Assembly (NCBI GenBank): GCA_046050965.1
Contig: JBJOPC010000339.1
Span: 1-26,485 of the forward strand
Length of the DNA stretch: 26,485 nt
Direction: 5' to 3'
Source of the DNA: Verrucomicrobiota bacterium
Lineage (GTDB): Bacteria > Verrucomicrobiota > Verrucomicrobiia > Limisphaerales > JAFMIX01
Shown here: positions 2,044 through 24,981 of the stretch, piece after piece
How positions within the stretch are numbered: the first letter of the stretch is position 1
Layout: each line of letters starts with the position of its first letter
The notes under the pieces: generated by a model
Databases searched by the model: none
What the model was told of the DNA's origin: nothing
The model's input: only the letters and a program-made list of their open reading frames with translations
Position numbers and translations under genes: made by a program

Positions 2044-3426
2044 CTAGCCGCGCGGCTGGGTGTAGAGTTCGCCGCCTTCGAGGTGTTGCATAATCATCTC
2101 GAGGGTGCGACCGAGTGAACCTTCGTTGTTTTGCACTACGGCGAGCGCGTTTTTGCCCAACTCGGCGCGGCGCGGGGCGTCGGCGAGGAGTTCGGCGAAA
2201 ACTTTTTCCAACTCGGCGGCGTCGCGCACTTGCACCGCGCCGCGCGCCTCGACAAAGCTGCGGGCGATGTCCACGAAGTTCTGCATGTTGGGACCAAAGA
2301 CCATCGCCTTGCCCAGCGCGCCCGGTTCGATGGGATTTTGCCCGCCTTCCGCCGTGAGGCTTTTGCCGACGAACACGACGGTGGCGGGTTCGTAAAAAAA
2401 CCGCAGTTCGCCGGTGGTGTTCACCAGCAGGCATTCGACTTCGCCGGGTTGGAACTGCGAACTGACGGTCAGCTCGCTGCGGAAAACAAACTTCACGCCG
2501 CGCGACTTGAGTTCGTTGCCGACGCTCTTGGCGCGCTCGAAATGGCGCGGCACGAGCACGAGGAACAGTTCGGGAAATTTTGCTTTGAGCCGCTGGAATT
2601 GCTCGGCGAGCAAGGCTTCTTCGCCATCGTGGGTGCTACCGGCGACGAGGATTTTTGCCCCAGCGGGCAAGGCGAGTTGACGCAGCAGCGCAGGCACATC
2701 GAGCGAACGTTGGCCGTCAATCTTCGCGGCGTCGAACTTGAGATTGCCGACAATCTGCACGGCGTCCGCGCGGCAACCGAGCGCGCGCACCCGCGCGGCG
2801 TCGGCCTCGTGCTGCACGCCCACGCCAGCGAAGGAGGCGAAGAGCGGCTGGAATAATTTCGGGAAGCGCGTGTAGCCGCGAAACGATTTGTCGGAGAGCC
2901 GGGCGTTGACGAGGAAGGTGGGAATGCCGAGTGCCTGCGCGCGCCACAGGAAGTTCGGCCAGATTTCCGCTTCGATGAGCACGATGGCTTCGGGTCGCAG
3001 CAAGCTGAACGCACGGTTGACGTAGGCGCGGCGGTCAATGGGGTAATAAATTTTGCCGATGTGCGCCGGAAGTTTTTTCTGCAACTCGCCCATGCCGGTG
3101 GTCGTGGTGGTGGAGACGATGATTTTGGCGTTGGGCAGACGCGGCTCAAGCGCGCGGATGAGTTGGGTGCACAGATTCACCTCGCCGACGCTGACGGCGT
3201 GGAGCCAGATGACGTGGCGGTTGGTGATGGACTGCTTGAACTTGCTGTCGTATTTGCCGAAGCGCTGGGCGAAGCCAGCGGTCCAGTTGCCGCGCCGCCG
3301 CATCCGCCAGAAATAATACGGCGCGGATAGCACGAAAAAAATCGTGAACAGGATGTTGTAAAAAAGTCGCACGGATGAAACCCAATTGACGCGTGTGAGT
3401 TTCCGCCAAGATGAGAGCCGCTTCAA
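2044..3426 (-). CDS. waaA: 3-deoxy-D-manno-octulosonic acid (Kdo) transferase
   Basis: 460-aa ORF with an N-terminal hydrophobic anchor. It has the HAVSVGE motif and KdtA/WaaA-like glycosyltransferase architecture throughout. Confidence 0.85.
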   Translation of the reverse strand: MKRLSSWRKLTRVNWVSSVRLFYNILFTIFFVLSAPYYFWRMRRRGNWTAGFAQRFGKYDSKFKQSITNRHVIWLHAVSVGEVNLCTQLIRALEPRLPNAKIIVSTTTTTGMGELQKKLPAHIGKIYYPIDRRAYVNRAFSLLRPEAIVLIEAEIWPNFLWRAQALGIPTFLVNARLSDKSFRGYTRFPKLFQPLFASFAGVGVQHEADAARVRALGCRADAVQIVGNLKFDAAKIDGQRSLDVPALLRQLALPAGAKILVAGSTHDGEEALLAEQFQRLKAKFPELFLVLVPRHFERAKSVGNELKSRGVKFVFRSELTVSSQFQPGEVECLLVNTTGELRFFYEPATVVFVGKSLTAEGGQNPIEPGALGKAMVFGPNMQNFVDIARSFVEARGAVQVRDAAELEKVFAELLADAPRRAELGKNALAVVQNNEGSLGRTLEMIMQHLEGGELYTQPRG

Positions 3427-3921: not shown

Positions 3922-4123
3922 TCAAATGTTGTAAAAATCGTTTAGAACATCATTCCCGCGCTGCCGCAAAAAACGGAGCCGCGTTGCCAAATGCAAGCGG
4001 AGCCGTGCATCGCCACGGGGCAGACAGCGGATTTGATTGTCGTGTTCAGTTTCATCAGACGCGCAGAGGGAACTATAAACGCGGACGAATGTCAATGTTT
4101 GGCTCTGGCTGGGCTCGCTTATT

Positions 4124-4193
4124 CCTAATCCTACTCGTAATCGTAATCCTCAAAACAAAAACGACTATGATTACGAGTAGGATTAAGATTAGG
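4124..4193. repeat. AT-rich long imperfect inverted repeat (cctaatcctactcgtaatc ... gattacgagtaggattaagattagg) followed by acttttc
   Basis: The 13-bp perfect core cctactcgtaatc / gattacgagtagg extends to about 19 bp with a bulge, around a 28-nt A-rich loop. It lies 60 bp upstream of the 4255 gene in an otherwise GC-rich genome. Confidence 0.55.
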
Positions 4194-4254: not shown

Positions 4255-6276
4255 ATGCCACGTTTTTTTCTCCTGCTCGCCGCACTGCTGCTCGCGTTGC
4301 CCGTCAGTGCTGCTGACTCCACGCCTGCCGACGCCGCGCTTGCCGATTACTTCCACCACGAAACCGCCGCGCTCGCCGAACGCAGCCCCACGCCGATAAA
4401 AAATCCCGCCGACTGGCCGACGCAGCGTGCCGAGTTGCGCGCGCAATTGCAGGAGATGCTCGGCCTCACGCCGCTGCCCGCGCGCACGGACTTGCATGCG
4501 ACCGTCACCGGCGTGTTCACGAACGACGCGTTCACGATGGAAAAAATTTATTTTGAGGCGTCGCCCAAACTTTATTGCACGGCGAATCTTTTTATCCCGC
4601 GCGGCCTCACTAATCCCGCGCCGACGGTGCTTTACGAGTGCGGCCATTTTCGGCTGTTCACCAACGGCATCAGCTACGGCAACAAAGCCGCGTATCAACT
4701 CGACGGTGCGTGGTTCGCGCGTCACGGCTACGTCTGCCTCGTCACCGACACCTTGCTTGCGGGCGAAGTGCAAGGCACACACACCGGCACGCGCGACAAA
4801 GGTCAATGGTGGTGGAACTCACGCGGCTACACGCCAGCGGGCGTGGAAGCGTGGATTGGCATTCGCTCGCTCGACTATCTCTGCACACGACCGGAAGTGG
4901 ACACGAATCGCTTCGGCGTAACCGGCCATTCCGGCGGCGGCGCATATTCGTGGACCGTCACCGCACTCGACGACCGCATCAAAGTCGCCGCCCCGCTCGC
5001 AGGCATGGCCGACCTCACGAGTCACATTGACGACGGCGTGATTGACAGCCATTGCGACTGCAATTTTTTCCAAAACATCTACCGCTGGGATTTTCCGCAA
5101 CTCGCCGCACTCGCCGCGCCGCGTCCGCTGCTGCTCGGCGGCACGGACAACGACCGTTTGTTCAACCTGTCTAACACCGTTCGCCTCCACGAAAAAATCC
5201 GCCGCGTGTATGCGCAACTCGGCGCGACCAACAATTTTGCGCTCGCCCTCGCGCCCGGCCCGCACGATGAAGTGCCGGAACTGCGCCTCGCTGTGCTGCG
5301 CTGGTTCGATCGCCATCTCAAAGGCGTAACCAAGGCGAACGAGCAGCCCATCACCGTGGACGCCGTGAAATATTTTACGCCCGAGCAAGTCCGCGTGTTC
5401 GTCACGTTGCCGACAGACGCCATCAACACGAACATCGCCGAGACGTTTGAGCCAGATTTTCGTAGCCGCCGACGTGAGGAGGCGCAAACCAATTCTTCGA
5501 CGTCCGATAAAACAGGTCAGAGCCTTCTCACGTCGGCGGCTATGCCGGAGGAATTGCGCGCCACGCTACGCGCGAAAGTTTTCGGCGGTTGGCCGGACGA
5601 TACACTGCCGCTGGAACCGAAGCGCGTCTTTGCCACCGAACGCGACGGCGTGAAATTCAGCGCGTGGGATTTCGCCAGCCAGCACGACGTGCCGCTGCGA
5701 CTTTACCTGTTTGAAAATGCCAAAACTCCGGCGGCCAATGTTTCGCTCACAGTTTTGGACGCTGCCGGTTGGACGAACTGGTTCAGTTCTGTCAGCGCCA
5801 AATTCAGCAACGAGTTGGCAGATGAAATAAAGACTGTTGGTGGCCGCGCGTTGCCGCGCGCGGAGGCTGACCAGCAGGTCAGCCCTACCAGCGCAAAGAC
5901 CCTCGCCTTCCTCGCGCCGCGCGGCGTGGGTTTGATCGCGTGGTCGGGCGACGACAAGGCACTCACCAAAATCCGCCGCCGCTTCATGGCCGTGGGCGAG
6001 ACGCTTGACTCTATGCGCGTGTGGGACATCCGCCGCGCGATTCAAACCCTGCACTTCGTCCGCGACAGCGAAACTGCGACTGTTGAATTAAAAGCCGACG
6101 GCGCGATGGCCGTGAACGCGCTCTACGCCGCACTGTTCGAGCCGGGCGTAAAAAAACTTTCGCTCACCAACCTGCCCGCGTCGCAAATCACCGGGCCAGA
6201 TTATCTCGGCGTGTTGAAATACACCGACGTGCCGCAAGTGCTGGAAGCGGTGAAGCAAACCGCGCGCGTGGAGTAG
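4255..6276 (+). CDS. Secreted alpha/beta-hydrolase (acetyl-xylan-esterase / dienelactone-hydrolase-like, GHSGGG nucleophile elbow) with a large extra C-terminal domain
   Basis: Signal peptide MPRFFLLLAALLLALPVSAA. G-x-S-x-G motif TGHSGGGAYSW. Length 673 aa. The C-terminal ~300 aa resemble an esterase-family N-lobe (weak). Confidence 0.55.
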   Translation: MPRFFLLLAALLLALPVSAADSTPADAALADYFHHETAALAERSPTPIKNPADWPTQRAELRAQLQEMLGLTPLPARTDLHATVTGVFTNDAFTMEKIYFEASPKLYCTANLFIPRGLTNPAPTVLYECGHFRLFTNGISYGNKAAYQLDGAWFARHGYVCLVTDTLLAGEVQGTHTGTRDKGQWWWNSRGYTPAGVEAWIGIRSLDYLCTRPEVDTNRFGVTGHSGGGAYSWTVTALDDRIKVAAPLAGMADLTSHIDDGVIDSHCDCNFFQNIYRWDFPQLAALAAPRPLLLGGTDNDRLFNLSNTVRLHEKIRRVYAQLGATNNFALALAPGPHDEVPELRLAVLRWFDRHLKGVTKANEQPITVDAVKYFTPEQVRVFVTLPTDAINTNIAETFEPDFRSRRREEAQTNSSTSDKTGQSLLTSAAMPEELRATLRAKVFGGWPDDTLPLEPKRVFATERDGVKFSAWDFASQHDVPLRLYLFENAKTPAANVSLTVLDAAGWTNWFSSVSAKFSNELADEIKTVGGRALPRAEADQQVSPTSAKTLAFLAPRGVGLIAWSGDDKALTKIRRRFMAVGETLDSMRVWDIRRAIQTLHFVRDSETATVELKADGAMAVNALYAALFEPGVKKLSLTNLPASQITGPDYLGVLKYTDVPQVLEAVKQTARVE

Positions 6277-6295
6277 TTGCACAACGTTTTGGGGT

Positions 6296-6316
6296 GCGGC
6301 GACACGTCGCCGCTTT
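6296..6316 (+). terminator. GC hairpin gcggcgacacgtcgccgc plus TTT between convergent genes; a second palindrome gagagacatgtctc lies at 6323-6336
   Basis: Read directly. The U-run is short, so strength is uncertain. It could serve both the hydrolase gene (+) and xylB (-). Confidence 0.35.
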
Positions 6317-6403
6317 CCGACCGAGAGACATGTCTCCCAGTTCCAAAGCGCGGTCATGCCCGCGCACTCCAAAGCAGGACGCGCTTTCGCCAATCTACGC
6401 TCA

Positions 6404-9322: not shown

Positions 9323-9997
9323 ATGTCCGCCAACATCGTCACCATCCGCGAACTCTCGAAGATTTATTTGCAGGGCGAGATCAATGTTACCGCGCTCAAC
9401 CGCGTGTCGCTGGATATCGCTGCGGGCGAGTTTCTCGCGCTCATGGGGCCGAGCGGTTCCGGCAAGTCCACGCTACTGCACATCCTCGCGGGCATTGACC
9501 GCCCCACGAGCGGCGAGTGCCGCGTGCAAGACGTGGACGTGACGCAGCTCAACGAATCCAAACTCGCCGACTGGCGCAATCGCAACGTGGGTTTTGTGTT
9601 CCAAACTTTCAATCTCATCCCGGTGCTGACCGCGCAGGAAAACGTGGAGTTGCCGCTGCTGCTCATGAAACTCTCGCGGCGCGAACGGCGCGACCGCGTG
9701 GCCGCCGCGCTCGGCCTCGTCGGCTTGGGCGACCGCGCGAAACATCTGCCGCGTCAACTTTCCGGCGGGCAAGAGCAGCGCGTGGCCATCGCCCGCGCGC
9801 TGGTGACGGATCCGACGCTCATCGTCGCGGACGAGCCGACGGGCAACTTGGATTCGCAGTCGGCAAACGACGTGTTGCGCGTGTTGCAGACCTTAAGCCG
9901 CGAATCGGGCAAGACGGTCATTATGGTCACGCATGACCCGAAGGCGGCGGCGTTCGCGAGCCGGCAGATTCACCTCGAAAAAGGAGAGCTGTGTTAG
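9323..9997 (+). CDS. ABC transporter ATP-binding protein (LolD/MacB/FtsE-like)
   Basis: Walker [13 protein letters not shown] signature [15 protein letters not shown], Walker [12 protein letters not shown]. Stop TAG 9995-9997. Confidence 0.85.
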
Positions 9998-10158
9998 CCA
10001 CAGATGGACACAGATGAAACACTGATAAGACCTCCGCAGATTGCACAGATTAACGCAGATTTTCTTTGAGATTTAATCTGCGTGAATCCGCGAAATCTGT
10101 GGACAAAATCTTCCCTCATCTGTGTTTCATCTGTGTTTCATCTGTGTCCATCTGTGGC
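9997..10158. mobile_element. MITE-like palindromic element, copy A (162 bp) with TIR GCCACAGATGGACACAGATGAAACA and TA flanks; inserted between the ABC ATPase stop and the permease start
   Basis: The left arm gccacagatggacacagatgaaaca ... cgcagat pairs with the right arm ...atctgcg... tgtttcatctgtgtttcatctgtgtccatctgtggc. CATCTGTG words recur with a 10-11 bp period. The element is flanked by TA on both sides; the left TA plus the first G of the element forms the TAG stop codon. Confidence 0.55.
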
Positions 10159-10170
10159 TAAATTTGTTTT

Positions 10171-11316
10171 GTGAACGTCCCGACTTTCATTTTGAAAAAC
10201 GCGCTGCGCAACAAGCGGCGGCTGCTGCTCTCGGTGTTGAGCGTGGCGGCGAGCATGTTTCTGCTCGTGGCGCTGATGGTGGCGTTGCGCGAGATGACGA
10301 TGCCGCCGGAAGCACTCGGCGCGGCGTTGCGCGTGGCGGTGCGAAATAAAATTTCCATCACCATGCCGCTGCCTGCGCGGCAGAAAGCCATCATCGAACG
10401 CATCCCCGGCGTGGAAGCCATCACGCCGTTCTCATGGTTCGGCGGCAAATATAAAAACGAGGGCGCGATGTCCTTCGCGCAGTTCGCGGTGGAGCCGGAG
10501 GGGATGCGGAAACTTTTCGTTGAATCCAAAATGCCGTCCACGCAACAAAGCGCGTTCGCCAAGGAAAAAACGGGCTGCATCCTCGGCAAAGTCACGGCGG
10601 AAAAATATGGGTTGAAAGTCGGCGATAAATTCCAACTCGAAAGCACGGTGTATCCGGTAACGATGGCGTTCAAAGTCGTCGGGATTTATTACGGCACGCC
10701 GGACGATCGTAATATGTATTTCCGGCAGGATTACCTCGACGACAGCATCGGTAAACCCGGCGTGGTCGGGATGTGGTGGATTAAAGTCAAATCGCCGGAG
10801 GATATGCAACCAGTCGTCGCGGCCATCAACGCGAAGTTCGCCAACACGTCGGCGGAAGTGCGGGCGGAAAGTGAGCGGGCGTTCCAACTCGGTTTCATTT
10901 CGATGTGGGGCAACATCAAAATTCTCGTCACTTCGATTTGCAGCGTGGTGGTGTTCACACTGGTGCTGGTGAGCGCGAGCACGATGAGCATGGCTATCCG
11001 CGAACGGTTCCGCGAACTGGCGATTCTCAAGGCGATCGGTTTTCAGCGGCGCGAATTGTTCGTGTTCATCCTCGCGGAAAGTTTTGCGCTGGCGGTGGCG
11101 GGCGGCGCGCTGGGCATCGGCGCAGCATATCTGGCGTTCACCTACTCGGACGTGCCGCGCTGGACGCACCAGATTTTTCTCTCGCTGGAAGTGACGCCCA
11201 AAATCATCGGGGTGGCGTCGCTGGTGGCGGTGGCACTGGGCATCATCGCGAGCATTGCGCCGGGGCTGGCGGTCGCGCGCATGAGCGTGGTGAGTGGGTT
11301 GAAGACGTTGGACTAG
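10171..11316 (+). CDS. ABC transporter permease, FtsX-like (LolC/E / MacB family)
   Basis: GTG start is the only start after the in-frame TAA at 10159. The N-terminus ILKNALRNKRRLLLSVLSVA is a typical FtsX-permease start. Multiple TM segments. Confidence 0.75.
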   Translation: MNVPTFILKNALRNKRRLLLSVLSVAASMFLLVALMVALREMTMPPEALGAALRVAVRNKISITMPLPARQKAIIERIPGVEAITPFSWFGGKYKNEGAMSFAQFAVEPEGMRKLFVESKMPSTQQSAFAKEKTGCILGKVTAEKYGLKVGDKFQLESTVYPVTMAFKVVGIYYGTPDDRNMYFRQDYLDDSIGKPGVVGMWWIKVKSPEDMQPVVAAINAKFANTSAEVRAESERAFQLGFISMWGNIKILVTSICSVVVFTLVLVSASTMSMAIRERFRELAILKAIGFQRRELFVFILAESFALAVAGGALGIGAAYLAFTYSDVPRWTHQIFLSLEVTPKIIGVASLVAVALGIIASIAPGLAVARMSVVSGLKTLD

Positions 11317-12776: not shown

Positions 12777-12850
12777 AATTTTTTTGCGGGACAGGGATTT
12801 TGTATCCGAACCATTCGACGGAAGCGCGGAAAAAATGCTCCCGGAATTTT

Positions 12851-12917
12851 ATCCGCAGATTTCGCAGATGGCCGCAGATTAAAAACTCATCTGCGAAAAT
12901 CTGCGAAATCTGCGGAT
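12851..12917. repeat. 67-bp perfect-armed palindrome built from CGCAGAT words (core-only relative of the MITE-like family), between the pdxA stop and the downstream minus-strand gene
   Basis: atccgcagatttcgcagat (left) is the exact reverse complement of atctgcgaaatctgcggat (right). Inner gcagatt / aatctgc words match the central part of copy A. Confidence 0.5.
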
Positions 12918-12922
12918 GCAGT

Positions 12923-13927
12923 TCAGGCTTGCGCTGCCAGTCGCCGCGCCAGATTCAGCGCAGCAATCATGCTCGACGGACTCGCCACGCCGCGCCCCGC
13001 GATGTCGTAAGCCGTGCCGTGATCCGGCGAGGTGCGGACGAACGGCAGGCCGAGCGTCCAGTTGATGCCTTGCTCGAAGCCAATCATCTTCAGCGGCGCG
13101 AGGCCTTGGTCGTGATACATCGCCACCACGGCGTCGAAGTCGCCGCGAAACGCTTGGTAAAACAAAGTGTCCGCCGCGAGCGGGCCGACGAGGTCCACGC
13201 CGGTTTTTTTCAGCGCGCGGCAAACGGGCGCGATGAGTTTGATTTCTTCCGTGCCGATTTTTCCATCCTCGCCCGCGTGCGGGTTGAGGCCGCAGACGCC
13301 GACGTGGGCGCGTGGCAGACCAAGGTCGCGGCAAGCTTGCGCGGCGAGCGTGATGGCGAGGCGGATGTTTTGCGCCGTCAAACTTTGCGCGACGCGGCGA
13401 ATGGGAACGTGCGTGGTGGCGAGGGCGACACGGAGCCAGCGACCACGGTCGTCGCAGCCGAGCAGCATCATGGCGGTGCGCCGGGTGCGCGCGAGCTGCG
13501 AGAGAAATTCCGTTTGGCCGACGAAATTTTTTTGACCGCTGCGGATGATGGCGGCTTTGTTGACGGGCGCGGTGACGAGGGCGGAAAGTTTTTTCTGGAG
13601 GCAAAGTTTCGCGCCGAGTTCGAGCGCGGCCATGGCGGCGCGGGCGGCAGCGGGTGAGCCTTGGGAAATTTTCTCCGGCAACGCGGCGGCCCACGGCTGG
13701 ATGACTTGCAATTTTTTACGGCTGGCCCAACCGGAGAATTTTTCCAGCGGAAGTTTCAGCCGCAGTTGTTCGTTGAGTTGCTGGAGTTGGCGGAAATCGC
13801 CGAGCAGAATGTAGCGCGTGGCGTCGGTGCGTTTGCGCGCGGCGAGGGCTTGGAGACTGATTTCCGGGCCGATGCCGGTGGGGTCGCCGGTGGCGAGGCC
13901 GAGGGGCGGGGAGATGTGAGAGTTCAT
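12923..13927 (-). CDS. pdxA: 4-hydroxythreonine-4-phosphate dehydrogenase
   Basis: 334 aa with PdxA family signatures (GDPTGIGPEI, ...HVPIRRV..., GLNPHAGE, ...MYHDQGL...). Classic position downstream of surA. Confidence 0.85.
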   Translation of the reverse strand: MNSHISPPLGLATGDPTGIGPEISLQALAARKRTDATRYILLGDFRQLQQLNEQLRLKLPLEKFSGWASRKKLQVIQPWAAALPEKISQGSPAAARAAMAALELGAKLCLQKKLSALVTAPVNKAAIIRSGQKNFVGQTEFLSQLARTRRTAMMLLGCDDRGRWLRVALATTHVPIRRVAQSLTAQNIRLAITLAAQACRDLGLPRAHVGVCGLNPHAGEDGKIGTEEIKLIAPVCRALKKTGVDLVGPLAADTLFYQAFRGDFDAVVAMYHDQGLAPLKMIGFEQGINWTLGLPFVRTSPDHGTAYDIAGRGVASPSSMIAALNLARRLAAQA

Positions 13928-15147: not shown

Positions 15148-15223
15148 GCGAGCGTAGCTCAGTTGGTAGAGCATCTCGTTGCCAACGAGAATGTCGAGGG
15201 TTCGAATCCCTTCGCTCGCTCCA
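15148..15223 (+). tRNA. tRNA-Gly (anticodon GCC), CCA encoded
   Basis: Folded by hand. Acceptor GCGAGCG/CGCTCGC, D-arm GCTC-AGTTGGTA-GAGC, anticodon stem TCTCG/CGAGA with loop TTGCCAA, T-arm GAGGG-TTCGAAT-CCCTT, discriminator T and CCA. Confidence 0.85.
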
Positions 15224-15686
15224 TTTTCCCCGGCATTTTCAGATAGCTCTCACGCGAAGATTGCCACAGACGCAAAGGTTTTCCAGAAATCCGATTTTTC
15301 TTTGCGCCCTTCGCGCGCTTTGCGTGAGGGAAAACCATCTTCCGCTTCAACTCTTTTGGCCTGCTCCTGTGGACGTTACGCGGCAGCCCATTGACGGTTC
15401 GCCAGACCGTGAGAGTATCGCTCCGCAGCAGCCGAAGTCTGGCTTCCTTCCAGAAGTCAGACGCGGGAGACCCAAAATCCCCAGCAATGGGGACGGGGCG
15501 CACGAAGTCAGGCAACTGATTTCAAGGCCACTTTCAAGGCCAAGCCCGACAGCTAATCTCGCAGGCATTTGGAAGGGCGAGCCTCTGACCTGCGAAGTCC
15601 GCAGTCTTCAAGTTCACCCCAACAGTAACGCGTCGCGTTGGTAGCGACGGTCATAGACCGCCGCTACAGCGCGACCACAACGGAGA

Positions 15687-17486
15687 ATGGGTATGAAAAC
15701 AAACATGGTCATGTTGGCAGTCGGTGAACTCGGTCTGCACGTCGGTTGGTTCTGGTGGCTCACGGGCTTCGTCGCGCTCGTATTGCTCTCCAGTCTGGTG
15801 CTGATTCGCGAACGGCAGGTGGGCATCGTGGTGAAACGCTTCGGCTCGCGTTCGCTCGCGCCCGGACACCTCATCGCGCTTGGCGGCGAAGCAGGTTTGC
15901 AAGCGGACACCCTCGCGCCCGGTTTGCACTTCGGTTATTGGCCGTGGCAATTCCGCGTCATCAAAGTTCCCGTCACCGTCGTCGAGCAAGGGGAAATTGC
16001 GCTCGTCATGGCGGCGGACGGCGCGGCGATGCCATCCGAACACATCCTCGGCAAACGCGTAGAGTGCGACGACTTCCAAGACGCGCGCAAATTCCTCGCG
16101 GGCGGCGGCGAGAAAGGACGCCAACTCGGCATCCTCACCGCTGGCACATACCGCATCAACACCTCGCAATTCACCATCATCACGTCGGCGACGGCGCACG
16201 CGCACGGCATGATGCCGGAGCAATTGCTGTTGCATCGCGTGGAGTCCGACATGGTGGGCGTTGTCACCACGCTCGACGGCCAGCCGATTCCCGCCGGTGA
16301 AATCGCCGGGCCGACCGTCACCGCACACGACAGCTTCCAGAACGCGCAGGCGTTTCTCGACGGCGGTGGCAGCCGTGGCTTGCAGGAGCAAATCCTGTTG
16401 TCCGGCGCGTGGAATTTGAATCCGTGGTTCGTGCAGGTGGAGCAAGTCCCGATGGTGCAGATTCCCATCGGCTATGTCGGCGTCGTCATTTCGTTCGTCG
16501 GCAAGGCGCACGAAGACGTCAGTGGCGCGGACTTCAAACACGGCGACCTCGTCAACGCCGGTCACAAAGGCGTGTGGGTCACGCCGCTGTATCCCGGCAA
16601 ACATCCGCTCAACACGCGCGTGATGAAAGTTGAACTCGTGCCGACCACGAACATCGTGCTCAACTGGGCGAATCGCACCGAGGCGCATAATTATGACTCG
16701 AAATTGCAATCCATCACCGTGCGTTCGCGCGACGGATTTGCGTTCAACCTCGACGTGTCGCAGATCATCCACGTCGGCGCGCTCGATGCGCCGAAGGTAA
16801 TTTCCCGCGTCGGCTCGATGCAAAATCTCGTGGATCACGTTTTGCAACCGACCGTCGGAAATTATTTCCGCAACTCCGCGCAAGACTTCACCGTGCTCGA
16901 CTTCCTCGGCGCACGTAGCCAACGGCAAGTCGAAGCGGCGGCGCATATCCGCGAAGCCATCGGCGCGTATGACGTGCAAGCGATTGACACACTCATCGGC
17001 GACATCAATCCGCCCGCCGAACTGATGACCACGCAAACCGATCGCAAGATTGCCGAGGAACAGCGCAAGACGTTCGAGGTGCAGGAAGCCGCGCAGATTC
17101 AGCGGCAACAACTCGTGCGCCAGACCTCGCTCGCCGACATCCAACAACAAGTCGTCGGCGCAGAACAAGGCGTGAACATTGCCGAGTTGAAAGCCAACGC
17201 CAGTGTGAAACACGCGACCGGCGAAGCTGAAGCCACGCGCCTCCGCGCCCTCGGCGAGGCCGAAGCCATCCGCGCTACCGGTGATGCCAAAGCGCAGGCC
17301 TATCGCGCGGGCGTCGAGTCCATCGGCACGCAGGGCTACACCGTCATGCAGCTCATGCAAATCATCGGCGAGCGCAACGTCCGTATCGTCCCCGACGTTT
17401 CCGTGACCGGCCAAGCCGGCGGCAATGGAATCGTGGACGGCTTGCTCGGCGTGATGCTAAAAGAACAAACTAAAAAAGCTGCGTGA
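15687..17486 (+). CDS. Flotillin-like SPFH/band-7 membrane protein (FloT/YqiK-like)
   Basis: N-terminal TM helix, then an SPFH start ERQVGIVVKRFG. C-terminal alanine/glutamate-rich coiled-coil repeats (ATGEAEATRLRALGEAEAIRATGDAKAQAYRAG). About 600 aa, as for bacterial flotillins. Confidence 0.7.
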   Translation: MGMKTNMVMLAVGELGLHVGWFWWLTGFVALVLLSSLVLIRERQVGIVVKRFGSRSLAPGHLIALGGEAGLQADTLAPGLHFGYWPWQFRVIKVPVTVVEQGEIALVMAADGAAMPSEHILGKRVECDDFQDARKFLAGGGEKGRQLGILTAGTYRINTSQFTIITSATAHAHGMMPEQLLLHRVESDMVGVVTTLDGQPIPAGEIAGPTVTAHDSFQNAQAFLDGGGSRGLQEQILLSGAWNLNPWFVQVEQVPMVQIPIGYVGVVISFVGKAHEDVSGADFKHGDLVNAGHKGVWVTPLYPGKHPLNTRVMKVELVPTTNIVLNWANRTEAHNYDSKLQSITVRSRDGFAFNLDVSQIIHVGALDAPKVISRVGSMQNLVDHVLQPTVGNYFRNSAQDFTVLDFLGARSQRQVEAAAHIREAIGAYDVQAIDTLIGDINPPAELMTTQTDRKIAEEQRKTFEVQEAAQIQRQQLVRQTSLADIQQQVVGAEQGVNIAELKANASVKHATGEAEATRLRALGEAEAIRATGDAKAQAYRAGVESIGTQGYTVMQLMQIIGERNVRIVPDVSVTGQAGGNGIVDGLLGVMLKEQTKKAA

Positions 17487-17515: not shown

Positions 17516-17746
17516 ATGAACTCAAATTCCAAAACTTGTCCCGAGTGTGACTGCCCAAATCTTTATTCGACTATTACTGGTTCGGGCGTCAGCCGCGGAC
17601 TGGTGGCGCTGCCGGAACTGGGCGGTTTATTTCGAGCCGCCAGAATGCGAGTCATCGTTTGCGCCGATTGCGGACTGACTCGTTTTTACGCCGACCCGGA
17701 TGCGCGTGAAAAATTACCGACCTCCAACCGCTGGCAACGCCTATGA
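17516..17746 (+). CDS. Small zinc-ribbon protein (CPECDC ... CADCG)
   Basis: 76 aa with two C-x2-C pairs. Its stop overlaps the next start (ATGA). Confidence 0.4.
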   Translation: MNSNSKTCPECDCPNLYSTITGSGVSRGLVALPELGGLFRAARMRVIVCADCGLTRFYADPDAREKLPTSNRWQRL

Positions 17747-18174
17747 AAAATTACCAACACACCCAAAGCAGCCCGCTCATCGTTGGCATCACGGTCGGAA
17801 CGTTTTTCATTCTGTTTGCGCTCGGCGTGTTTGTGCTGAAGCCATTCCTCATTACTTCGCCGCTCCTATTGATCGCGGGCTGGCTATTTCACTCGCTGAC
17901 GATTGAGATTACCGACCGCGAACTCCGTTGGCATTTTGGCATCGGCCTCATCCGCAAACGCGTTGCCCTCGCCGACATCGCGAGCGTGAAAATTGTCCGC
18001 ACGAATTTCTGCGAAGGTTGGGGCATCCACTGGAGTCGCTTCGGCTGGCTTTACAACGTCTCCGGCTACGACGCCATCGCCGTCACGCTGCACAGCGGCA
18101 AGCGCTTCGCCCTCGGCACGGATGAACCTCAAGTTCTCGCCGCGCAACTCAATCAAACTCTTCAGCAAGGTTAA
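17743..18174 (+). CDS. Membrane protein with two N-terminal TM helices and a C-terminal bacterial PH-like (bPH/YdbS-like) domain
   Basis: The hydrophobic N-terminus and the domain assignment are by pattern only. The gene is translationally coupled to the upstream gene. Confidence 0.4.
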   Translation: MKNYQHTQSSPLIVGITVGTFFILFALGVFVLKPFLITSPLLLIAGWLFHSLTIEITDRELRWHFGIGLIRKRVALADIASVKIVRTNFCEGWGIHWSRFGWLYNVSGYDAIAVTLHSGKRFALGTDEPQVLAAQLNQTLQQG

Positions 18175-18177
18175 CCT

Positions 18178-20142
18178 ATGGAAAATAAAACTAACTGGTT
18201 CAAGCGTATCTTCATCGGGCAAGCGCGCAGCCTCACCGAGAAAAATTTGTTCCACAAAATCTCTCTTGTCGCCGTGCTCGCGTGGGTCGGGCTGGGCGCG
18301 GATGGATTGTCGTCGTCATGCTATGGCCCGGAGGAAACGTTCAAGGCGTTGGGCGCGCACATCGCGCTCGCACCATTCATCGCGCTCGCGTGCGTGGCGA
18401 CCATCGCCATCATCTGCGTAAGTTACGCGCAGATCATCGAATTGTTTCCGGGCGGCGGCGGCGGTTATCTCGTCGCGAGCAAGCTGCTCTCGCCGTCGGC
18501 AGGCGTGGTCTCGGGCTGCGCGCTGCTGGTGGATTACGTGCTGACCATCGCTATCTCCATTGCGAGCGGGGCAGACGCCTTGTTCTCGCTGCTACCGGTG
18601 GCGTGGCAACCGTGGAAACTTCCATTCGCGCTGGCGGGAACGGCGTTGCTCACGCTGCTCAACTTGCGCGGCGTGAAAGAATCCGTGCTGCTGTGGTCCC
18701 CGATATTTTTTCTGTTCATCGCCACGCACGGGTTCGGAATTCTTTACGCTATCAGCACGCACTTTGGCACGATGCCGGAAATCTTTTCGCAGACTACTGC
18801 CGGCGTGAGCGCGGCGCACTCGCAACTCGGCTGGCTTGGCGTGCTGCTTTTATTATTGCGCGCTTACAGTGTAGGTGCGGGCACTTACACGGGCATCGAG
18901 GCAGTGAGCAACGGCCTACCAATCTTGCGCGAGCCGCGCGCGACCACCGGCAAACGCACGATGCTCTACATGGGCGCATCACTCGCGCTGACGGTCGGCG
19001 GTTTGCTCGCGGCTTACTTGTTGTTCCACGTCGCGCCGCAGGACGGCAAGACTTTGAACGCCGTGTTGTTCGAGCAGATGACGAGTGCGTGGCCGAGTTG
19101 GTTGAGTAAAGGTTTTATTTCCGCCGCCATGATTTCCGCGTCGGCGTTGCTATTCATCGCGGCGCAAGCGGGCTTCCTCGACGGCCCACGCGTGTTGGCA
19201 AACATGGCGCTCGACCGCTGGTTTCCCACACGCTTCGCAACCTTGAGCGACCGCTTCGTGGCGCAGAACGGGATTTTGCTCATGGGCGGGGCGGCGTTGC
19301 TGGTGTTGCTCGGCACACGCGGTGCGGTGGGGTTGCTCGTGGTGCTTTACAGCATCAACGTCTTCATCACGTTCTCGCTTTCGCAGCTCGGCATGGTGCG
19401 GCACTGGTGGCAAGAACGCGCCGTGAACCCGCGCTGGTTGCGCAAGCTCGCCATCAACGTCGTTGGCCTCGCGCTAACCAGCTTCATCCTCGTGACGCTG
19501 ACAGTGGAAAAGTTTTTTGAAGGCGGCTGGGTGACGCTGCTTGTCACCGCCATTTTTGTCGGCGCGGCGTTTCTCATCCGGCGGCATTACGACCAAACCA
19601 AGCGCGACCTCGCGCGGTTGGATTCGCTCATGCCGGTGTTCGCCGATGAAAATTCTGTGGCAACAAATCCATCAGCCTGCGATGCGAACGCCAAGACTGC
19701 CGTCGTGTTCGTGAACGGTTTCAACGGACTCGGCGTTCACACCGTGCTCGCGATCGTGCGGATGTTTCCCGGCGTGTTCCGCAATTTCGTGTTTGTCCAT
19801 GTGGGCGTGGTGGACGCTGGAAATTTCAAAGGCGCAAGTGAATTGGAAAACCTCCGCGCCCACATCGCGACCGAATCAGGCCACTATGTGGCGTCCATGC
19901 AGCGGCGCGGTTTTTACGCAGAGGCCATCACCGAAGCCAGCACTGACGTGGTGGAAACGGCGAGCCGACAGGCGACGGCGTTGGCGCGGCGCTTTCCGCA
20001 GGCGATGTTCTTCAGCGGCCAGCTCGTCTTCGCAAAAGACTCACGGCTGACGCGGCTGCTGCATAACTTCGCGGTGTTCGCCTTGCAGCGGGAATTCTTC
20101 CGCCAAGGGCTGGCCTTTTTGATTCTGCCCATTCGAGTGTGA
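18178..20142 (+). CDS. kimA: KimA-family K+ transporter (APC superfamily) with C-terminal cytoplasmic domain
   Basis: Strong recollection-based similarity to B. subtilis KimA (YdaO). KRIFIGQARSL matches KRFLIGKPLKS. SYAQIIELFPGGGGGYLVASK...LLVDYVLTIAISIASGADAL matches SYRQIIYAYPQGGGAYIVSK...LLVDYILTVAVSISAGTDAI. LLNLRGVKES and TGIEAVSNGLP are also shared. Confidence 0.75.
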   Translation: MENKTNWFKRIFIGQARSLTEKNLFHKISLVAVLAWVGLGADGLSSSCYGPEETFKALGAHIALAPFIALACVATIAIICVSYAQIIELFPGGGGGYLVASKLLSPSAGVVSGCALLVDYVLTIAISIASGADALFSLLPVAWQPWKLPFALAGTALLTLLNLRGVKESVLLWSPIFFLFIATHGFGILYAISTHFGTMPEIFSQTTAGVSAAHSQLGWLGVLLLLLRAYSVGAGTYTGIEAVSNGLPILREPRATTGKRTMLYMGASLALTVGGLLAAYLLFHVAPQDGKTLNAVLFEQMTSAWPSWLSKGFISAAMISASALLFIAAQAGFLDGPRVLANMALDRWFPTRFATLSDRFVAQNGILLMGGAALLVLLGTRGAVGLLVVLYSINVFITFSLSQLGMVRHWWQERAVNPRWLRKLAINVVGLALTSFILVTLTVEKFFEGGWVTLLVTAIFVGAAFLIRRHYDQTKRDLARLDSLMPVFADENSVATNPSACDANAKTAVVFVNGFNGLGVHTVLAIVRMFPGVFRNFVFVHVGVVDAGNFKGASELENLRAHIATESGHYVASMQRRGFYAEAITEASTDVVETASRQATALARRFPQAMFFSGQLVFAKDSRLTRLLHNFAVFALQREFFRQGLAFLILPIRV

Positions 20143-20231
20143 GCCGCGAGCTTTCAACTCGACTTTGCGCGGGCAAAACCTGACAGTTTGCCCGGCTGTT
20201 GCGGAACACCAGCCACGAACGAAAACCGCAA

Positions 20232-21329
20232 ATGACCAAGGAACTTTCTATTTTCGCCACGCGTCTCCGCGACGCCATCGCCTCCGGCTTTCGCCCGGAA
20301 AATTTCCCCGCGCTCGCGCTCGAACTCTTCACGCTGCAATTCCAGCACAACCTCGCCTATCAAAAAATCTGCCGCGCCCGCAGCCTCACGCCTGCGAACG
20401 TGACCGACTGGACGCAGGTTCCCGCCGTGCCGACCTCCGCGTTCAAGGAACTCGAACTGACCGCGCTCGCGCTATCCGAGCGCACCGCCGTTTTCCACTC
20501 CAGCGGCACGACCGAACAAAAACCCAGCCGCCATTTCCACAACGCCGACTCGCTCGCCCTCTACGAAAAATCTTTGTGGGCGGCGTTTGACCAAATCTTT
20601 CAACTTTCAACTTTCAACTTTCAACTTTGCGTTCTGACGCCACCAGCGAATCAAGTCCCCCACTCCTCGCTCGTGCATATGTTTGAGGTCGTGCGAAAAA
20701 AACTCGCGCAGCCGCCAGAAGTTTTCCTCGGTCACCTCGCCGACGACGGAACGTGGCAACTTGATTTCCCCGCCGCGCTCGCCGCCTTGTCCTCCAACTC
20801 AAAACTCAAAACTCAAAACTCAAAACTAATTCTCGGCACCGCTTTTTCCTTCGTTCACCTCCTCGACTTCCTCGCAGAAAAAAATCTGCGCCTCGCGCTC
20901 CCGCCCGGCTCGCGCGTGCTGGAAACCGGCGGCTACAAAAACCGTTCGCGCTCGATGCCCAAGCCCGAGTTGCACGCGCTCATAGCCGACCGCCTTGGCG
21001 TTGCCCGCGAAAACATCGTCTGCGAATACGGCATGAGCGAGTTGAGTTCGCAAGCGTATGAAACGAGAATTCAGAATTCAGAATCCAGAATCCAGAATCG
21101 TGCGTTCCAATTTCCACCATGGGCAAGAGCGCAGATTGTTTCGCCCGAAACTGGCCGCGCTGTGGCCGATGGCGAAACGGGTTTGCTCCGCCTCTGCGAT
21201 TTGGCGAATGTGTTTTCCGTGCAAGCCATCCAAACCGAAGACCTCGCCATTCGACGTGGCGAAGGTTTTGAACTCCTTGGCCGCGCGCAACTCGCCGAGC
21301 CGCGCGGTTGCTCGCTCATGACCGCGTAA
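20232..21329 (+). CDS. luxE: LuxE-family acyl-protein synthetase homolog (adenylate-forming); alternative start 20199
   Basis: Motifs align with Vibrio LuxE. FHSSGTTEQK matches FTSSGTNGLK. LETGGYKN matches ITGGGWKS. PPWARAQIVSPETGRAVADGETGLL matches [25 protein letters not shown]. The C-terminal PRGCSLM matches QKGCALSL. Confidence 0.75.
   Translation: MTKELSIFATRLRDAIASGFRPENFPALALELFTLQFQHNLAYQKICRARSLTPANVTDWTQVPAVPTSAFKELELTALALSERTAVFHSSGTTEQKPSRHFHNADSLALYEKSLWAAFDQIFQLSTFNFQLCVLTPPANQVPHSSLVHMFEVVRKKLAQPPEVFLGHLADDGTWQLDFPAALAALSSNSKLKTQNSKLILGTAFSFVHLLDFLAEKNLRLALPPGSRVLETGGYKNRSRSMPKPELHALIADRLGVARENIVCEYGMSELSSQAYETRIQNSESRIQNRAFQFPPWARAQIVSPETGRAVADGETGLLRLCDLANVFSVQAIQTEDLAIRRGEGFELLGRAQLAEPRGCSLMTA
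20597..20628. repeat. Intragenic heptanucleotide tandem repeat (CTTTCAA)x4.6
   Basis: ctttcaa ctttcaa ctttcaa ctttcaa cttt, perfect, inside the luxE-like coding sequence (encodes IFQLSTFNFQL). Confidence 0.9.
20808..20838. repeat. Intragenic heptanucleotide tandem repeat (CTCAAAA)x4.4
   Basis: ctcaaaa x4 then cta, perfect, inside the luxE-like coding sequence (encodes NSKLKTQNSKL). Confidence 0.9.
21065..21099. repeat. Intragenic heptanucleotide tandem repeat (CAGAATY)x5
   Basis: gagaatt cagaatt cagaatc cagaatc cagaatc, inside the luxE-like coding sequence (encodes ETRIQNSESRIQNR). Confidence 0.9.
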
Positions 21330-21330
21330 A

Positions 21331-22035
21331 ATGAAACGTCGCGCCATCATTTACACCGCGCTAGTGCTGCTCCTCGCGGCAACGGGCTGGTTCGTGAAAC
21401 GCCAGCTTTACGCCGACGCTTGGACGATTGAAGAACGGCTCGCACAATTTGGACCGACGTCGCGCGCGCGGCTCCAAACTTGGTTCGCTCAAGCGGGGCT
21501 GACTTACCCGCCCGCGCAACTGATGTTCGTGGGACTCAAAGCCGAACGCCTTCTGCAAATCTACGCGCCCGCTTCCGATGGTCGCTGGCGGTTCGTCCAC
21601 GCCTGCGCAATTCTCGGCGCGAGCGGCGTCGCCGGCCCGAAGTTGCGCGAGGGTGATTTCCAAGTGCCAGAGGGCATCTACGCCATTGACCTGCTGAACC
21701 CGAATAGCCGCTACCAAATTTCCATGCAGGTCAGCTACCCAAACACCTTCGACCGGGAACACGCCGCCGCCGAAGGTCGGCGGGAACTCGGCGGCGAAAT
21801 CATGATTCACGGCGGCCACACCTCGGCGGGTTGCCTCGCCGTCGGCGATGAAGCTTCGGCGGATTTGTTCGTGCTCGCCGCAGACACAGGTTTGTCCAAC
21901 ATCACGGTCGTGCTCGCGCCCGTGGATTTCCGCGCTGGCAAATCCGTGACGAACGCCATGCCCGCGTGGACGCCCGCGCTCTACGACCAAATCAAAATGC
22001 GCCTAACCGAGCTGCCGCTGCCGCCAAATAATTAA
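21331..22035 (+). CDS. YafK/DpaA-family L,D-transpeptidase-like protein (YkuD catalytic domain), N-terminal signal/anchor
   Basis: Recollection-based alignment to E. coli YafK. GPKLREGDFQVPEGIYAI matches GPKQRQGDFKSPEGFYSV. NSRYQISMQVSYPNTFDREH matches DSRYYKAINIGFPNAYDRAH. The catalytic IMIHGGHTSAGCLAV matches LMIHGDCVSIGCYAM. The start is 1 nt after the luxE-like stop. Confidence 0.7.
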   Translation: MKRRAIIYTALVLLLAATGWFVKRQLYADAWTIEERLAQFGPTSRARLQTWFAQAGLTYPPAQLMFVGLKAERLLQIYAPASDGRWRFVHACAILGASGVAGPKLREGDFQVPEGIYAIDLLNPNSRYQISMQVSYPNTFDREHAAAEGRRELGGEIMIHGGHTSAGCLAVGDEASADLFVLAADTGLSNITVVLAPVDFRAGKSVTNAMPAWTPALYDQIKMRLTELPLPPNN

Positions 22036-22172
22036 CCACCGATGCACACAGATAAACACAGATGCCCAGGCCGCGGATTGCAACGATTTGCTCGGTTTCA
22101 ATCCGTGTTAATCCGTGAAATCCGGCTCAAAAAGTTTTTCCCCATCTGTGTTCATCTGTGTCCATCTGTGGC
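22036..22172. mobile_element. MITE-like palindromic element, copy C (137 bp, more degenerate arms: CCACCGATGCACACAGATAAACACAGATG ... CATCTGTGTTCATCTGTGTCCATCTGTGGC)
   Basis: It begins immediately after the TAA stop of the yafK-like gene and ends 9 nt before the MFS ATG. There are three CAGATG-type words per arm at 10-bp spacing. Confidence 0.5.
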
Positions 22173-22181
22173 AAAAAAAAT

Positions 22182-23471: not shown

Positions 23472-23476
23472 ATCTC
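23442..23476. repeat. Heptanucleotide periodic repeat (CAATCGG CAATCGG CAATCCT AAATCGT AAATCTC) spanning the MFS stop codon and abutting the luxC-like ATG
   Basis: Read directly. It encodes the MFS C-terminus ...SAIGNPKS and the 5-nt intergenic spacer. Confidence 0.7.
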
Positions 23477-24832: not shown

Positions 24833-24971
24833 CCACAGATGAAACACGGATTGAACACAGATGAAAACGACCTCCGCAGATGACACAGCTTCACGCAGAT
24901 TAAATTCAATCGGCGAAAATCTGTGTCATCTGCGGACAAAATCCGTGTTTCATCCGTGTTCAATCCGTGGC
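24832..24971. mobile_element. MITE-like palindromic element, copy D (140 bp; TIR GCCACAGATGAAACACGGATTGAACACAGATG / CATCCGTGTTCAATCCGTGGC) with TA/TTA flanks
   Basis: The first G completes the TAG stop of the luxC-like gene. The element ends 10 nt before the queD ATG. The central part cgcagatgacacag...ctgtgtcatctgcgg is itself a palindrome. Confidence 0.55.
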
Positions 24972-24981
24972 TTAAAAAATT

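Follow-up and report, generated by a model that had tools for sequence, protein, structure and literature searches.

Within a 26,485-nucleotide stretch of a Verrucomicrobiota genome (contig JBJOPC010000339.1 of assembly GCA_046050965.1; the window, meaning the whole stretch that was analysed), we identified four hairpin elements, copies A to D, in which CRCRGAT words form inverted tandem arrays and which all occupy stop-to-start gaps of co-directional genes (Table 1). The same arms bracket genes of the GxxExxY family at other loci, and just beyond the window, on the same contig, they bracket an internally deleted GxxExxY gene. We conclude that the window elements are probably gene-less derivatives, either non-autonomous or decayed, of a selfish GxxExxY hairpin cassette that resides in operon junctions and resembles the intervening sequences (IVSs) of 23S rRNA. 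They are most appropriately classed as a GxxExxY-associated variant of IVS-type hairpin cassettes that lies in mRNA junctions rather than as a Correia/IS630 miniature inverted-repeat transposable element (MITE), the class to which the earlier note on this DNA had likened them. The finding is real, and an ordinary MITE would be of less interest.

When the window was scanned for clustered CRCRGAT words with degenerate positions allowed, exactly four sites were returned, which are copies A, B, C and D. The word CACAGATG occurs 12 times, compared with 0.46 expected from shuffled sequences, a count that was reached in 0 of 100 shuffles, and all 12 occurrences fall within copies A, C and D. Each arm contains two to four CRCRGAT words with a period of 10-11 nt, and the arms pair as inverted repeats of 29-39 nt with 82-92% complementarity. 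Copy B is a simple hairpin. Copies A, C and D are composite palindromes that share outer CACAGATG arrays and an inner CGCAGAT-type hairpin, the latter being degenerate in copy C (CGCGGAT/AATCCGTG). These three copies align over the full length of the composite with a mean column identity of 75% and differ chiefly by indels of whole words and by transitions, which indicates that they are homologous copies of one composite. All four elements are predicted to fold into long hairpins, with z-scores of -6.9 to -16.2 relative to dinucleotide shuffles. Copy A, which contains a 38-nt inverted repeat with 92% complementarity (I1, 9994-10031/10124-10161), folds at -87.8 kcal/mol on the plus strand and -92.9 kcal/mol on the minus strand (z -12 and -16). 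The corresponding values are -51.4 and -49.0 kcal/mol for copy B (z -8.7 and -7.6), which has a 39-nt inverted repeat with 82% complementarity (I3, 12841-12879/12889-12927), and -71.9 and -84.4 kcal/mol for copy D (z -11.3 and -13.5), and copy C shows z-scores of -6.9 and -7.7. None of these units, which range from 87 to 168 bp, contains an open reading frame (ORF). The sequence, word enrichment, inverted repeats and folding bear out the palindromic elements that the earlier note had placed at about these positions, including a core-only relative at 12851-12917 that corresponds to copy B.

The antisense strand folds better in all three of the composite copies. A strand-specific RNA function was considered and rejected, as 30 junction hairpins show no strand bias (14 versus 16; Wilcoxon p = 0.79). 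An Rfam scan returned no family above threshold, with chance matches to miRNA hairpins at no more than 29 bits against gathering scores of 82-100. By-eye likenesses of the words to a DnaA box (TTATCCACA versus TTATCCGCA), a parS half-site (TGTTTCAC), a CsrA site (ACGGAUG) and the Verrucomicrobia LexA box were set aside as unsupported. A further hairpin, alike in class but made of another word family, lies 62 nt upstream of the start of an esterase-like gene (4255); its periodicity is 0.78 over 4118-4150, which is the sole figure kept from a general detector of word-array hairpins that gave far too many false positives.

Table 1. Positions of the hairpin elements and of the features that adjoin them, numbered along the window unless another locus is named.
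Feature	Position	Strand	Description
Copy A	9994-10161	.	Between ABC ATPase 9323-9997 and FtsX/MacB permease 10171-11316
Copy A, outer left arm	9994-10031		TTAGCC + 2.5 CACAGATG words
Copy A, inner hairpin	about 10033-10103		CGCAGAT/CACAGAT words
Copy A, outer right arm	10117-10161		4 CATCTGTG words + GGCTAA
ATPase stop codon	9995-9997	+	TAG, within terminal TTAGCC of copy A (ORF 9323..9997, PF00005)
Spacer and permease start	10162-10173	+	9-nt A/T-rich spacer + GTG start, immediately 3' of copy A stem base
Copy B	12841-12927	.	Stand-alone hairpin, 3+3 CGCAGAT words; minus-strand operon, pdxA/DUF4139 gap
Copy C	22033-22175	.	Between YkuD stop TAA 22033-22035 and MFS transporter ATG 22182
Copy C, outer arms	22036-22064 and 22143-22171		Inverted repeat I9, 29 nt, 90% complementary
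Copy D	24829-24975	.	Between LuxC stop TAG 24830-24832 and PTPS ATG 24982; inverted repeat I8
Copy D, outer arms	24831-24862 and 24941-24972		CACAGATG/CACGGATT words
Copy D, inner hairpin	24873-24936		CGCAGAT words; palindrome 24873-24904/24905-24936
Hairpin of another word family	4118-4193	.	Same hairpin class; TAATCC/TAATCG words, 6-nt period, 33-nt arms, 10-nt loop (I10)
Deleted GxxExxY cassette	L283 8634-8838		Same contig, about 530-734 nt upstream of window start; between cdsA stop and dxr ATG

Every copy lies between protein-coding genes, with no rRNA in the window, and copy A separates an ABC ATPase from its own FtsX/MacB permease. Those permease homologues whose source is named indicate Verrucomicrobiota. 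The stop codons of the ATPase and LuxC genes lie inside the terminal TTAGCC of copies A and D, respectively, the YkuD stop codon adjoins copy C, and, on the minus strand, the pdxA stop codon (TGA, 12923-12925) lies inside the stem base of copy B, with the start of the DUF4139 gene at 12776. Downstream of copies A, C and D, the start codons are found 10-11 nt past the terminal ...GTGGC, in agreement with the earlier claim that the elements end just before the next start. Within the plus-strand operon at 17516-25347, the successive junction gaps are 30, -4, 4, 57, 2, 147 (copy C), 6 and 150 nt (copy D), the only large ones being the two elements. An A-rich spacer lacking a Shine-Dalgarno sequence had also been singled out; the spacer is present, but it is the norm in this genome, most genes of which have an A-rich leader (aaaaatt before the ATG).

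Searching a reference-genome collection with the pattern GCCACAGATG-N2-3-CACAGATG returned at least 120 stretches, and the matches listed come from records labelled Verrucomicrobiota, Planctomycetota (Gemmataceae, Tepidisphaeraceae and Phycisphaerae), Acidobacteriota, Chloroflexota, Pseudomonadota and others. The typical unit consists of tAGC-CACAGATGaa with three words, a variable loop of 10-150 nt, and three ttCATCTGTG words followed by GCTAa. A convergent arrangement of arrays was found 73 times, compared with 4 times for the divergent arrangement, and the arms covary at the R positions of the words (445 of 506 matched, compared with 400.8 +/- 4.6 in shuffles), a count to which the relatedness of copies could contribute. 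The inverted repeat regularly runs past the words into T(T/C)AGCC and often for 10 or more additional nucleotides, either as GAATTTAGCC/GGCTAAATTC or as a T-run/A-run. The family is made of inverted tandem arrays of a 10-11-nt word with the core CRCRGAT, closed by T(n)TAGCC...GGCTA(n), and the right end of the element includes the A-run that precedes the next ATG. The TTAGCC...GGCTAA repeat is conserved from Verrucomicrobiota to Planctomycetota and Chloroflexi, with TCAGCC/GGCTGA variants that have no direct repeat. Because the inverted repeat includes TTAG/CTAA, the apparent TA flanks belong to the palindrome and there is no demonstrable target duplication. The earlier note had derived the TAG stops of copies A and D from a flanking TA and the first G of the element; these stops do lie in the element ends, but the TA is internal to the repeat rather than a flank.

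The multiplicity of the family is evident within a single genome, as six word-array elements lie on one contig of about 30 kb. A contig from another sample stops inside copy A, which is expected of a multi-copy repeat. These results agree with the earlier description of a dispersed, non-coding, palindromic family. Copy A was identical in three further samples. The same contig also carries a solo left arm (L283 3570-3600), which consists of three CGCAGAT words without an inverted partner at a convergent junction. Among cultured bacteria, a replicon of Bacteroides finegoldii has a CACAGATTA/CACGGATTA/CGCAGATTA hairpin immediately 3' of the stop codon of a branched-chain aminotransferase gene, and a CGCAGAT hairpin is present in Haliscomenobacter hydrossis.

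The evidence that connects these hairpins to a gene came from the spacing of the arms. We fetched approximately 170 arrays by pattern and paired each '+' array with the next '-' array up to 10 kb away. Most of the loops were shorter than 200 nt, and a separate class had 290-480 nt between the arms. This class was the only ORF-bearing one among the array pairs, and in six of its eight loci (L099, L127, L133, L151, L155 and L200) a GxxExxY ORF of about 125-135 aa starts inside the word array. The ORF matches TIGR04256 (E 4e-41) and PF13366 PDDEXK_3 (E 5e-40), and its product is a minimal Cas4-like PD-(D/E)XK nuclease; a search of PDB sequences with GxxExxY yielded no solved relative and one spurious repeat match only. 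The 5' words encode the start codon and a disordered N-terminal tail (M-D/N-T-D-E-T-Q-I), such that ...CCACAGATGGACACAGATGAAACACAGAT translates as P-Q-M-D-T-D-E-T-Q-I, and the N-termini of 69 of the 120 closest GxxExxY homologues are translated CRCAGAT words (e.g., MNTDKTQK, MSADRTQI and TQTDTDR). The GxxExxY family is large, with 34,917 clusters at 50% identity for E <= 1e-3 and 13,223 for E <= 1e-10, and its function has been given as 'Unknown' with multiple transfers (PMC3424549). Many of its representatives are about 260 aa in length with two matched stretches, and these may have arisen when the minimal nuclease domain was duplicated in tandem or fused.

We also sampled by protein, using a GxxExxY query trimmed of its N-terminal tail. 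Word arrays flank five of the five distinct GxxExxY genes on viral contigs, each with its own word (CACGGAT, AACCAGATG, AACGGAAT or CGCAGAAA). Eight GxxExxY loci were sampled from plasmids and secondary replicons of cultured bacteria; clear inverted arrays are present at the loci of Bernardetia (CACAGAGA) and B. finegoldii (CACAGAGGA), the Treponema locus has one inverted word pair, those of Fusobacteria and Prevotella have direct repeats containing words, and that of Sphingomonas has a left array only. In each of the six annotated replicon loci the gene lies between co-directional neighbours and runs along with them, as between fabD and fabG, radA and a gene for an FAD-dependent protein, or ade and manC. 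Two long contigs have the GxxExxY gene within a hemB-...-hemL-dnaN operon, and in one of them 3.5 tandem copies of a left arm of about 105 nt (L280 9684-10012) lie 5' of the gene. This arm is bipartite, with three CACAGATG words, a G+C-rich spacer and two to three CGCAGAT words, and its order of outer and inner words is that of copies A and D.

A deleted cassette of this kind lies close to the window itself, with the layout TTAGCCACAGATGGACACAGATGAAACACAGAT, a 53-aa ORF, CAATCTGTGTTTCATCTGTGTCCATCTGTGGCTAA, aaa and ATG. Its arms are nearly identical in sequence to those of copy A. In a BLASTP comparison with full-length GxxExxY, the 53-aa ORF aligned to residues 3-39 at 57% identity and to residues 118-136 at 95% identity, which indicates an internally deleted gene. 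A Pfam scan of the remnant gave no match, as would be expected of a sequence that is too short or split, so its identity rests on BLASTP. The locus stands midway between the full cassette and hairpins that have no gene.

Orthologous junctions in relatives revealed both filled and empty sites, which answers the earlier question of presence/absence polymorphism in the affirmative. At the ATPase/permease junction, the closest relative (L274; 83% identity) is empty with a 2-nt gap (TAGaaATG), and L275 is empty with a GTGA overlap. Two other relatives have hairpins at this site, one of CAGGAAA words and one of CACGAAT/CACGGAT words with a nested G+C-rich insert; the loci with other-word hairpins at this junction are L276, L277 and L278. 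For the LuxC/PTPS junction, we compared 55 metagenomic loci with conserved synteny. Four of them (L218, L232, L246 and L259) are empty with an ATGA-type overlap, and more than 20 contain hairpins, which belong to at least nine word families (CACGAAT, TGGAGTGA, CAGTAGT, GAAACGTG and GGCAGAT, together with CGCAGAGA, CGCAAAGA, CGTTGAA, GGAACTCA and CACGGAT). Two loci (L235 and L236) have a 451-nt cassette at the same site, in which the arms surround a gene for a four-helix-bundle protein of the S23p family (TIGR02436, E 9e-38). Over 32 junction hairpins, the median offset of the stem start relative to the stop codon is -2 nt, and the median distance from the stem to the ATG that follows it is 10 nt. 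At the 3' end of LuxC in L229 and L233, the upstream ORF extends 4-11 codons into the word array to a stop supplied by the element, which indicates that the hairpins remodel protein C-termini.

Two observations concern the interior of these hairpins. In the LuxC/PTPS gap of L223 and L226, a small palindrome (cccgcaNtgcggg) is mirrored in both arms of a CACGGAT hairpin, a hint that one arm was copied from the other and that there were not two separate insertions. The loops of word hairpins often hold other G+C-rich palindromic repeats, e.g., gtagggcgcgtcactccgtgcgcgcc (L241, L233 and L277), and seem to be places where further repeats land preferentially or are tolerated.

The alternative that best survives these comparisons, although we consider it unlikely, is that the elements are cis-regulatory modules selected by the host, in which the words bind S1, Csp, a CsrA-like protein or an operator protein and the inverted copy masks them in a hairpin that sets the relative expression of the two cistrons. 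The right arm does place three to four tandem words 10 nt upstream of the next start, and the same junction is occupied in most relatives. However, close relatives lack the element and have overlapping stop and start codons, the words at one junction differ by lineage, and the genes served are unrelated (ABC transporter, MFS, PTPS, dxr, trmB and others). Furthermore, the same arms surround small, selfish-looking genes and a decayed remnant, and there are solo arms and nested copies. The earlier note had likened the helical phasing of the words to iteron or operator arrays, but sister families at the same junctions have word periods from 6-7 to 11 nt and those of Coxiella are heptamers (PMC4990558), which suggests that one-turn spacing is not a conserved property.

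We assign a still lower probability to a classical MITE of the Correia or RUP type, which would be a deletion derivative of an insertion sequence (IS) such as IS630 that is mobilised in trans by a DDE transposase binding the word arrays as terminal inverted repeats and duplicates a TA target upon insertion. The terminal inverted repeats, the size below 200 bp, the absence of coding capacity, the many copies and the filled and empty orthologous sites fit this description, as does the TA...TA that bounds copies A and D. However, that TA is part of the conserved TTAGCC/GGCTAA repeat, which is often longer by 10 nt or more, and neither copy C nor the TCAGCC/GGCTGA variants have a direct repeat. 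Among the fetched loci, none of 93 '+...-' array pairs has a span of 0.5-2 kb, the words of the two arrays are of different types in the single 2.5-kb pair (L130), and every ORF-bearing unit carries GxxExxY and no transposase. The cognate transposase anticipated by the earlier note was absent from the fetched loci, in which none of approximately 170 arrays enclosed a transposase-sized unit. Finally, element ends of 5'-CA...TG-3' or TTAGCC correspond to no known IS end, and the exact words are common to several phyla.

Local formation of the palindromes is more improbable again. In this scenario, slippage amplifies a word and snap-back or template-switch repair inverts the copy, so that neither transposition nor a dedicated enzyme takes part. 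The number of words does vary among arms, copies and Coxiella strains (PMC4990558), and the 3.5 tandem left arms of L280 and the mirrored palindrome of L223 and L226 are of the kind that such events would leave. However, near-identical arms of 30-40 nt, which include the non-repetitive TTAGCC and the A/T runs, are found at unrelated loci in one genome and in different phyla, which goes beyond what local slippage can explain. The idea that the elements are intrinsic (Rho-independent) terminators or attenuators between cistrons is scarcely credible, because, although they are stable intergenic stem-loops and a partly T-rich stretch comes after copy A, a terminator scan made no calls on the main stems and its total was at background (36 compared with 29.2 +/- 5.1), copies C and D have A-runs rather than T-runs on their 3' side, the long stems are not rich in G+C, and the elements are embedded in tight operons in which no promoter was called for the downstream genes. 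A promoter scan likewise made no calls on the elements.

Returning to the junction cassette related to IVSs, we propose the following mechanism. In the full cassette, the arms bracket a GxxExxY gene of about 125 aa whose start codon is provided by the 5' array, and the hairpins may arise from such cassettes by internal deletion or be mobilised in trans. The elements lie precisely between the stop and start of cistrons that originally overlapped or abutted. In the folded element, the upstream stop would sit at the 5' base of the stem and the downstream start about 10 nt past its 3' base. Fold-back would thus keep the cistrons physically juxtaposed, and the insertion would be tolerated for that reason. 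The A-run of the element probably serves as the leader of the downstream gene, and translational coupling could be preserved across the insertion. That the elements act as intra-operon RNA hairpins, as the earlier note had suggested among other possibilities, is plausible. In the operon transcript, the near-perfect stem of 30-65 bp would be a likely substrate for RNase III, cleavage by which would split the polycistronic mRNA between cistrons, as an IVS does in pre-23S rRNA, and would uncouple the stabilities of the flanking cistrons. The weakest point of the proposal is that the Cas4-like nuclease, or a host factor, may act on the arrays and mobilise the arms.

Several points weigh against this interpretation. 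Flanking arrays are not universal, as clear inverted pairs were found at three of the eight plasmid GxxExxY loci and two loci were unclear. The inner CGCAGAT hairpin is present in copies A, C and D but not in the GxxExxY remnant of the same contig, which suggests that their descent may involve the nesting of two elements. S23p cassettes have similar arms and no nuclease, so the ORFs may be cargo rather than a mobility enzyme. No transposition product, target-site duplication or same-species pair of filled and empty sites was found among the loci compared, and four near-identical contigs from four samples all carry copy A unchanged, so that mobility is deduced from distribution only. The words that differ by lineage at one junction could reflect an old functional hairpin that was homogenised within each genome instead of repeated insertion. 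The taxonomic labels of metagenome-assembled genomes among the pattern matches may include mis-binned contigs, and both RNase III cleavage and translational coupling are analogies.

The closest known system is the IVS of 23S rRNA, which has been known since 1990 although its origin, its mechanism of mobility and the role of its ORF have not been established (PMC4990558). In Coxiella burnetii, the IVS is 428 nt with a 28-bp terminal inverted-repeat stem; its leader contains AGAAGA, and GACAGAT heptamers in tandem, two or three depending on the strain, lie just 5' of the S23p ATG (PMC4990558). RNase III cuts the stem at the first repeat, and the origin of the element has been left as 'remnants of transposition' or a 'mobile element whose ORF is needed for mobility' (PMC4990558). 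The IVSs of Coxiella, Leptospira, Salmonella and others (S23p ORF, TIGR02436/PF05635) resemble the elements described here in their long terminal inverted-repeat stem, in the tandem short words by the ORF start or in the stem (the Coxiella GACAGAT is one base from CACAGAT), in an AG-rich or A-rich leader with a small ORF in the loop (here, in the cassette relatives), and in being suspected selfish or mobile elements with no known mechanism. Moreover, an S23p-type cassette (L235) occupies the same LuxC/PTPS junction as copy D. In contrast to IVSs, which lie in helix 25 or 45 of 23S rRNA, the elements here lie in mRNA between cistrons, the window copies have no ORF, and the ORF of the family is a GxxExxY nuclease rather than S23p, which was found only in sister cassettes (L235 and cyanobacterial plasmids) and not in the word family of the window. 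The words here also have a period of 10-11 nt rather than 7 nt, the arms are bipartite (outer CACAGATG and inner CGCAGAT), and there are many copies per genome; cleavage by RNase III is reported for IVSs, whereas here the stems of 30-65 bp are predictions. The S23p genes on cyanobacterial plasmids are accompanied by tandem heptamer arrays at four of four loci (GGCAGAA, GGAGA-type, GGGAAAA and CTCTGCC), and an inverted pair brackets the gene at three of them, the locus of Nostoc PCC 7120 having a downstream array only.

Correia/NEMIS elements, ERIC, RUP and RPE are among the MITEs whose properties have been reviewed, and NEMIS stem-loops have been proposed as RNase III targets (PMC2229807). Like the hairpins here, MITEs are palindromic, non-coding units of about 100-200 bp that occur in many copies, lie mostly between genes and are transcribed together with them, and they show filled and empty sites. 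Unlike the hairpins, they have TA duplications and IS parents, neither of which is demonstrable here, and unique terminal inverted repeats rather than tandem word arrays whose exact arm sequence is common to several phyla; the ORF-bearing relatives of the hairpins encode a nuclease or a four-helix-bundle protein and no transposase. Repetitive extragenic palindromes (REPs) are described as single imperfect palindromes of 20-40 nt with GTAG or CGTC tags (PMC3733652). The REP/REPIN-RAYT system is similar in that dispersed extragenic hairpins flank a small gene for a nucleic-acid enzyme as inverted copies and have gene-less doublets (REPINs) analogous to the hairpins here. However, RAYT is a Y1 transposase of the IS200/IS605 type and is usually single-copy, whereas our elements have non-palindromic tandem-word arms, a PD-(D/E)XK fold and gene-bearing units that are multi-copy and horizontally spread, and the combination of a GTAG/CGTC-tagged palindrome of 20-40 nt with a Y1 gene was not seen.

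Cyanobacterial short tandemly repeated repetitive (STRR) heptamer arrays invite the same class of comparison as the TAACTGA repeats. The latter are direct heptamer repeats that closely precede start codons in Beggiatoaceae, Cyanobacteria and Bacteroidetes, and their horizontal spread has been suspected 'but no mechanism is evident' (MacGregor, 2015; PMC4679880). Both they and the arrays here comprise two to six tandem short words a few nucleotides 5' of the starts of unrelated genes, with a patchy distribution across phyla. TAACTGA arrays differ in being direct repeats (one indirect in 170 sets), whereas each array here is paired with an inverted array as a hairpin, and the link to GxxExxY or S23p cassettes is not reported for them (PMC4679880). 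The literature that we consulted on GxxExxY, PDDEXK_3, S23p and the MITEs of these phyla contained no description of the class outside 23S IVSs, a 2024 survey of MITEs makes no mention of Verrucomicrobia, Planctomycetes, nuclease or tandem (PMC11602168), and searches by sequence strings returned primers only. No paper was found that ties GxxExxY, word arrays and IVSs together, with the qualification that coverage was incomplete and database curators may know of the association.

With less confidence than we attach to the origin of the window elements, and tentatively at best, we suggest that IVSs, the orphan families GxxExxY and S23p, heptamer and decamer word arrays 5' of start codons and MITE-like hairpins might be facets of one cross-phylum class of selfish 'junction cassette', with or without a tiny gene. 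Such cassettes would colonise stop/start junctions and rRNA helices because fold-back keeps their flanks juxtaposed, and they would be propagated by their own Cas4-like nuclease or by hairpin-templated copying rather than by a transposase. If this link is true, the cognate word arrays, as hairpins or cruciforms, would represent a concrete candidate substrate for a large orphan family of nucleases, and the concept of the IVS would be widened from rRNA to mRNA operon junctions in many phyla. The link would also account for assembly-breaking repeats in metagenomes of Verrucomicrobiota, Planctomycetota, Acidobacteriota and Bacteroidota, and it would suggest how an insertion of 150-450 bp can sit harmlessly between translationally coupled genes. 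The hairpins also deserve to be recognised during genome annotation, as they supply stop codons, lengthen C-termini by a few codons and yield spurious N-terminal extensions such as MNTDETQI.

The window contains several additional features. A tRNA (15148-15220; 73.8 bits) is followed by a c-di-AMP riboswitch (15420-15582; RF00379, 54.6 bits, above the gathering score), and both are located upstream of an SPFH/Band-7 gene (15693-17486). At 1884-2030, a 21-nt unit (ACGGGAGTTCGGCTGGGGTTC) is repeated in tandem about seven times; the array lies where an HNH-like ORF (633-1439) and kdtA (2044-3372, minus strand) converge on a gap of 600 nt. The esterase and FGGY kinase genes likewise converge, and the gap between them holds a palindrome with GGTGCGGCGACACGTCGCCGCTTTCC at 6288-6373. 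A relative has a hairpin (L275 18718-18806) formed by a motif that is nearly identical (GGAGTGCGGCGACATGTCGCCGCTTT); these palindromes appear to be another conserved repeat family. Two near-perfect palindromes lie inside long ORFs, at 5457-5548 in the esterase-like gene (arms of 34 nt) and at 22767-22844 in the MFS transporter gene (arms of 27 nt), and these may be in-frame intragenic repeat insertions.

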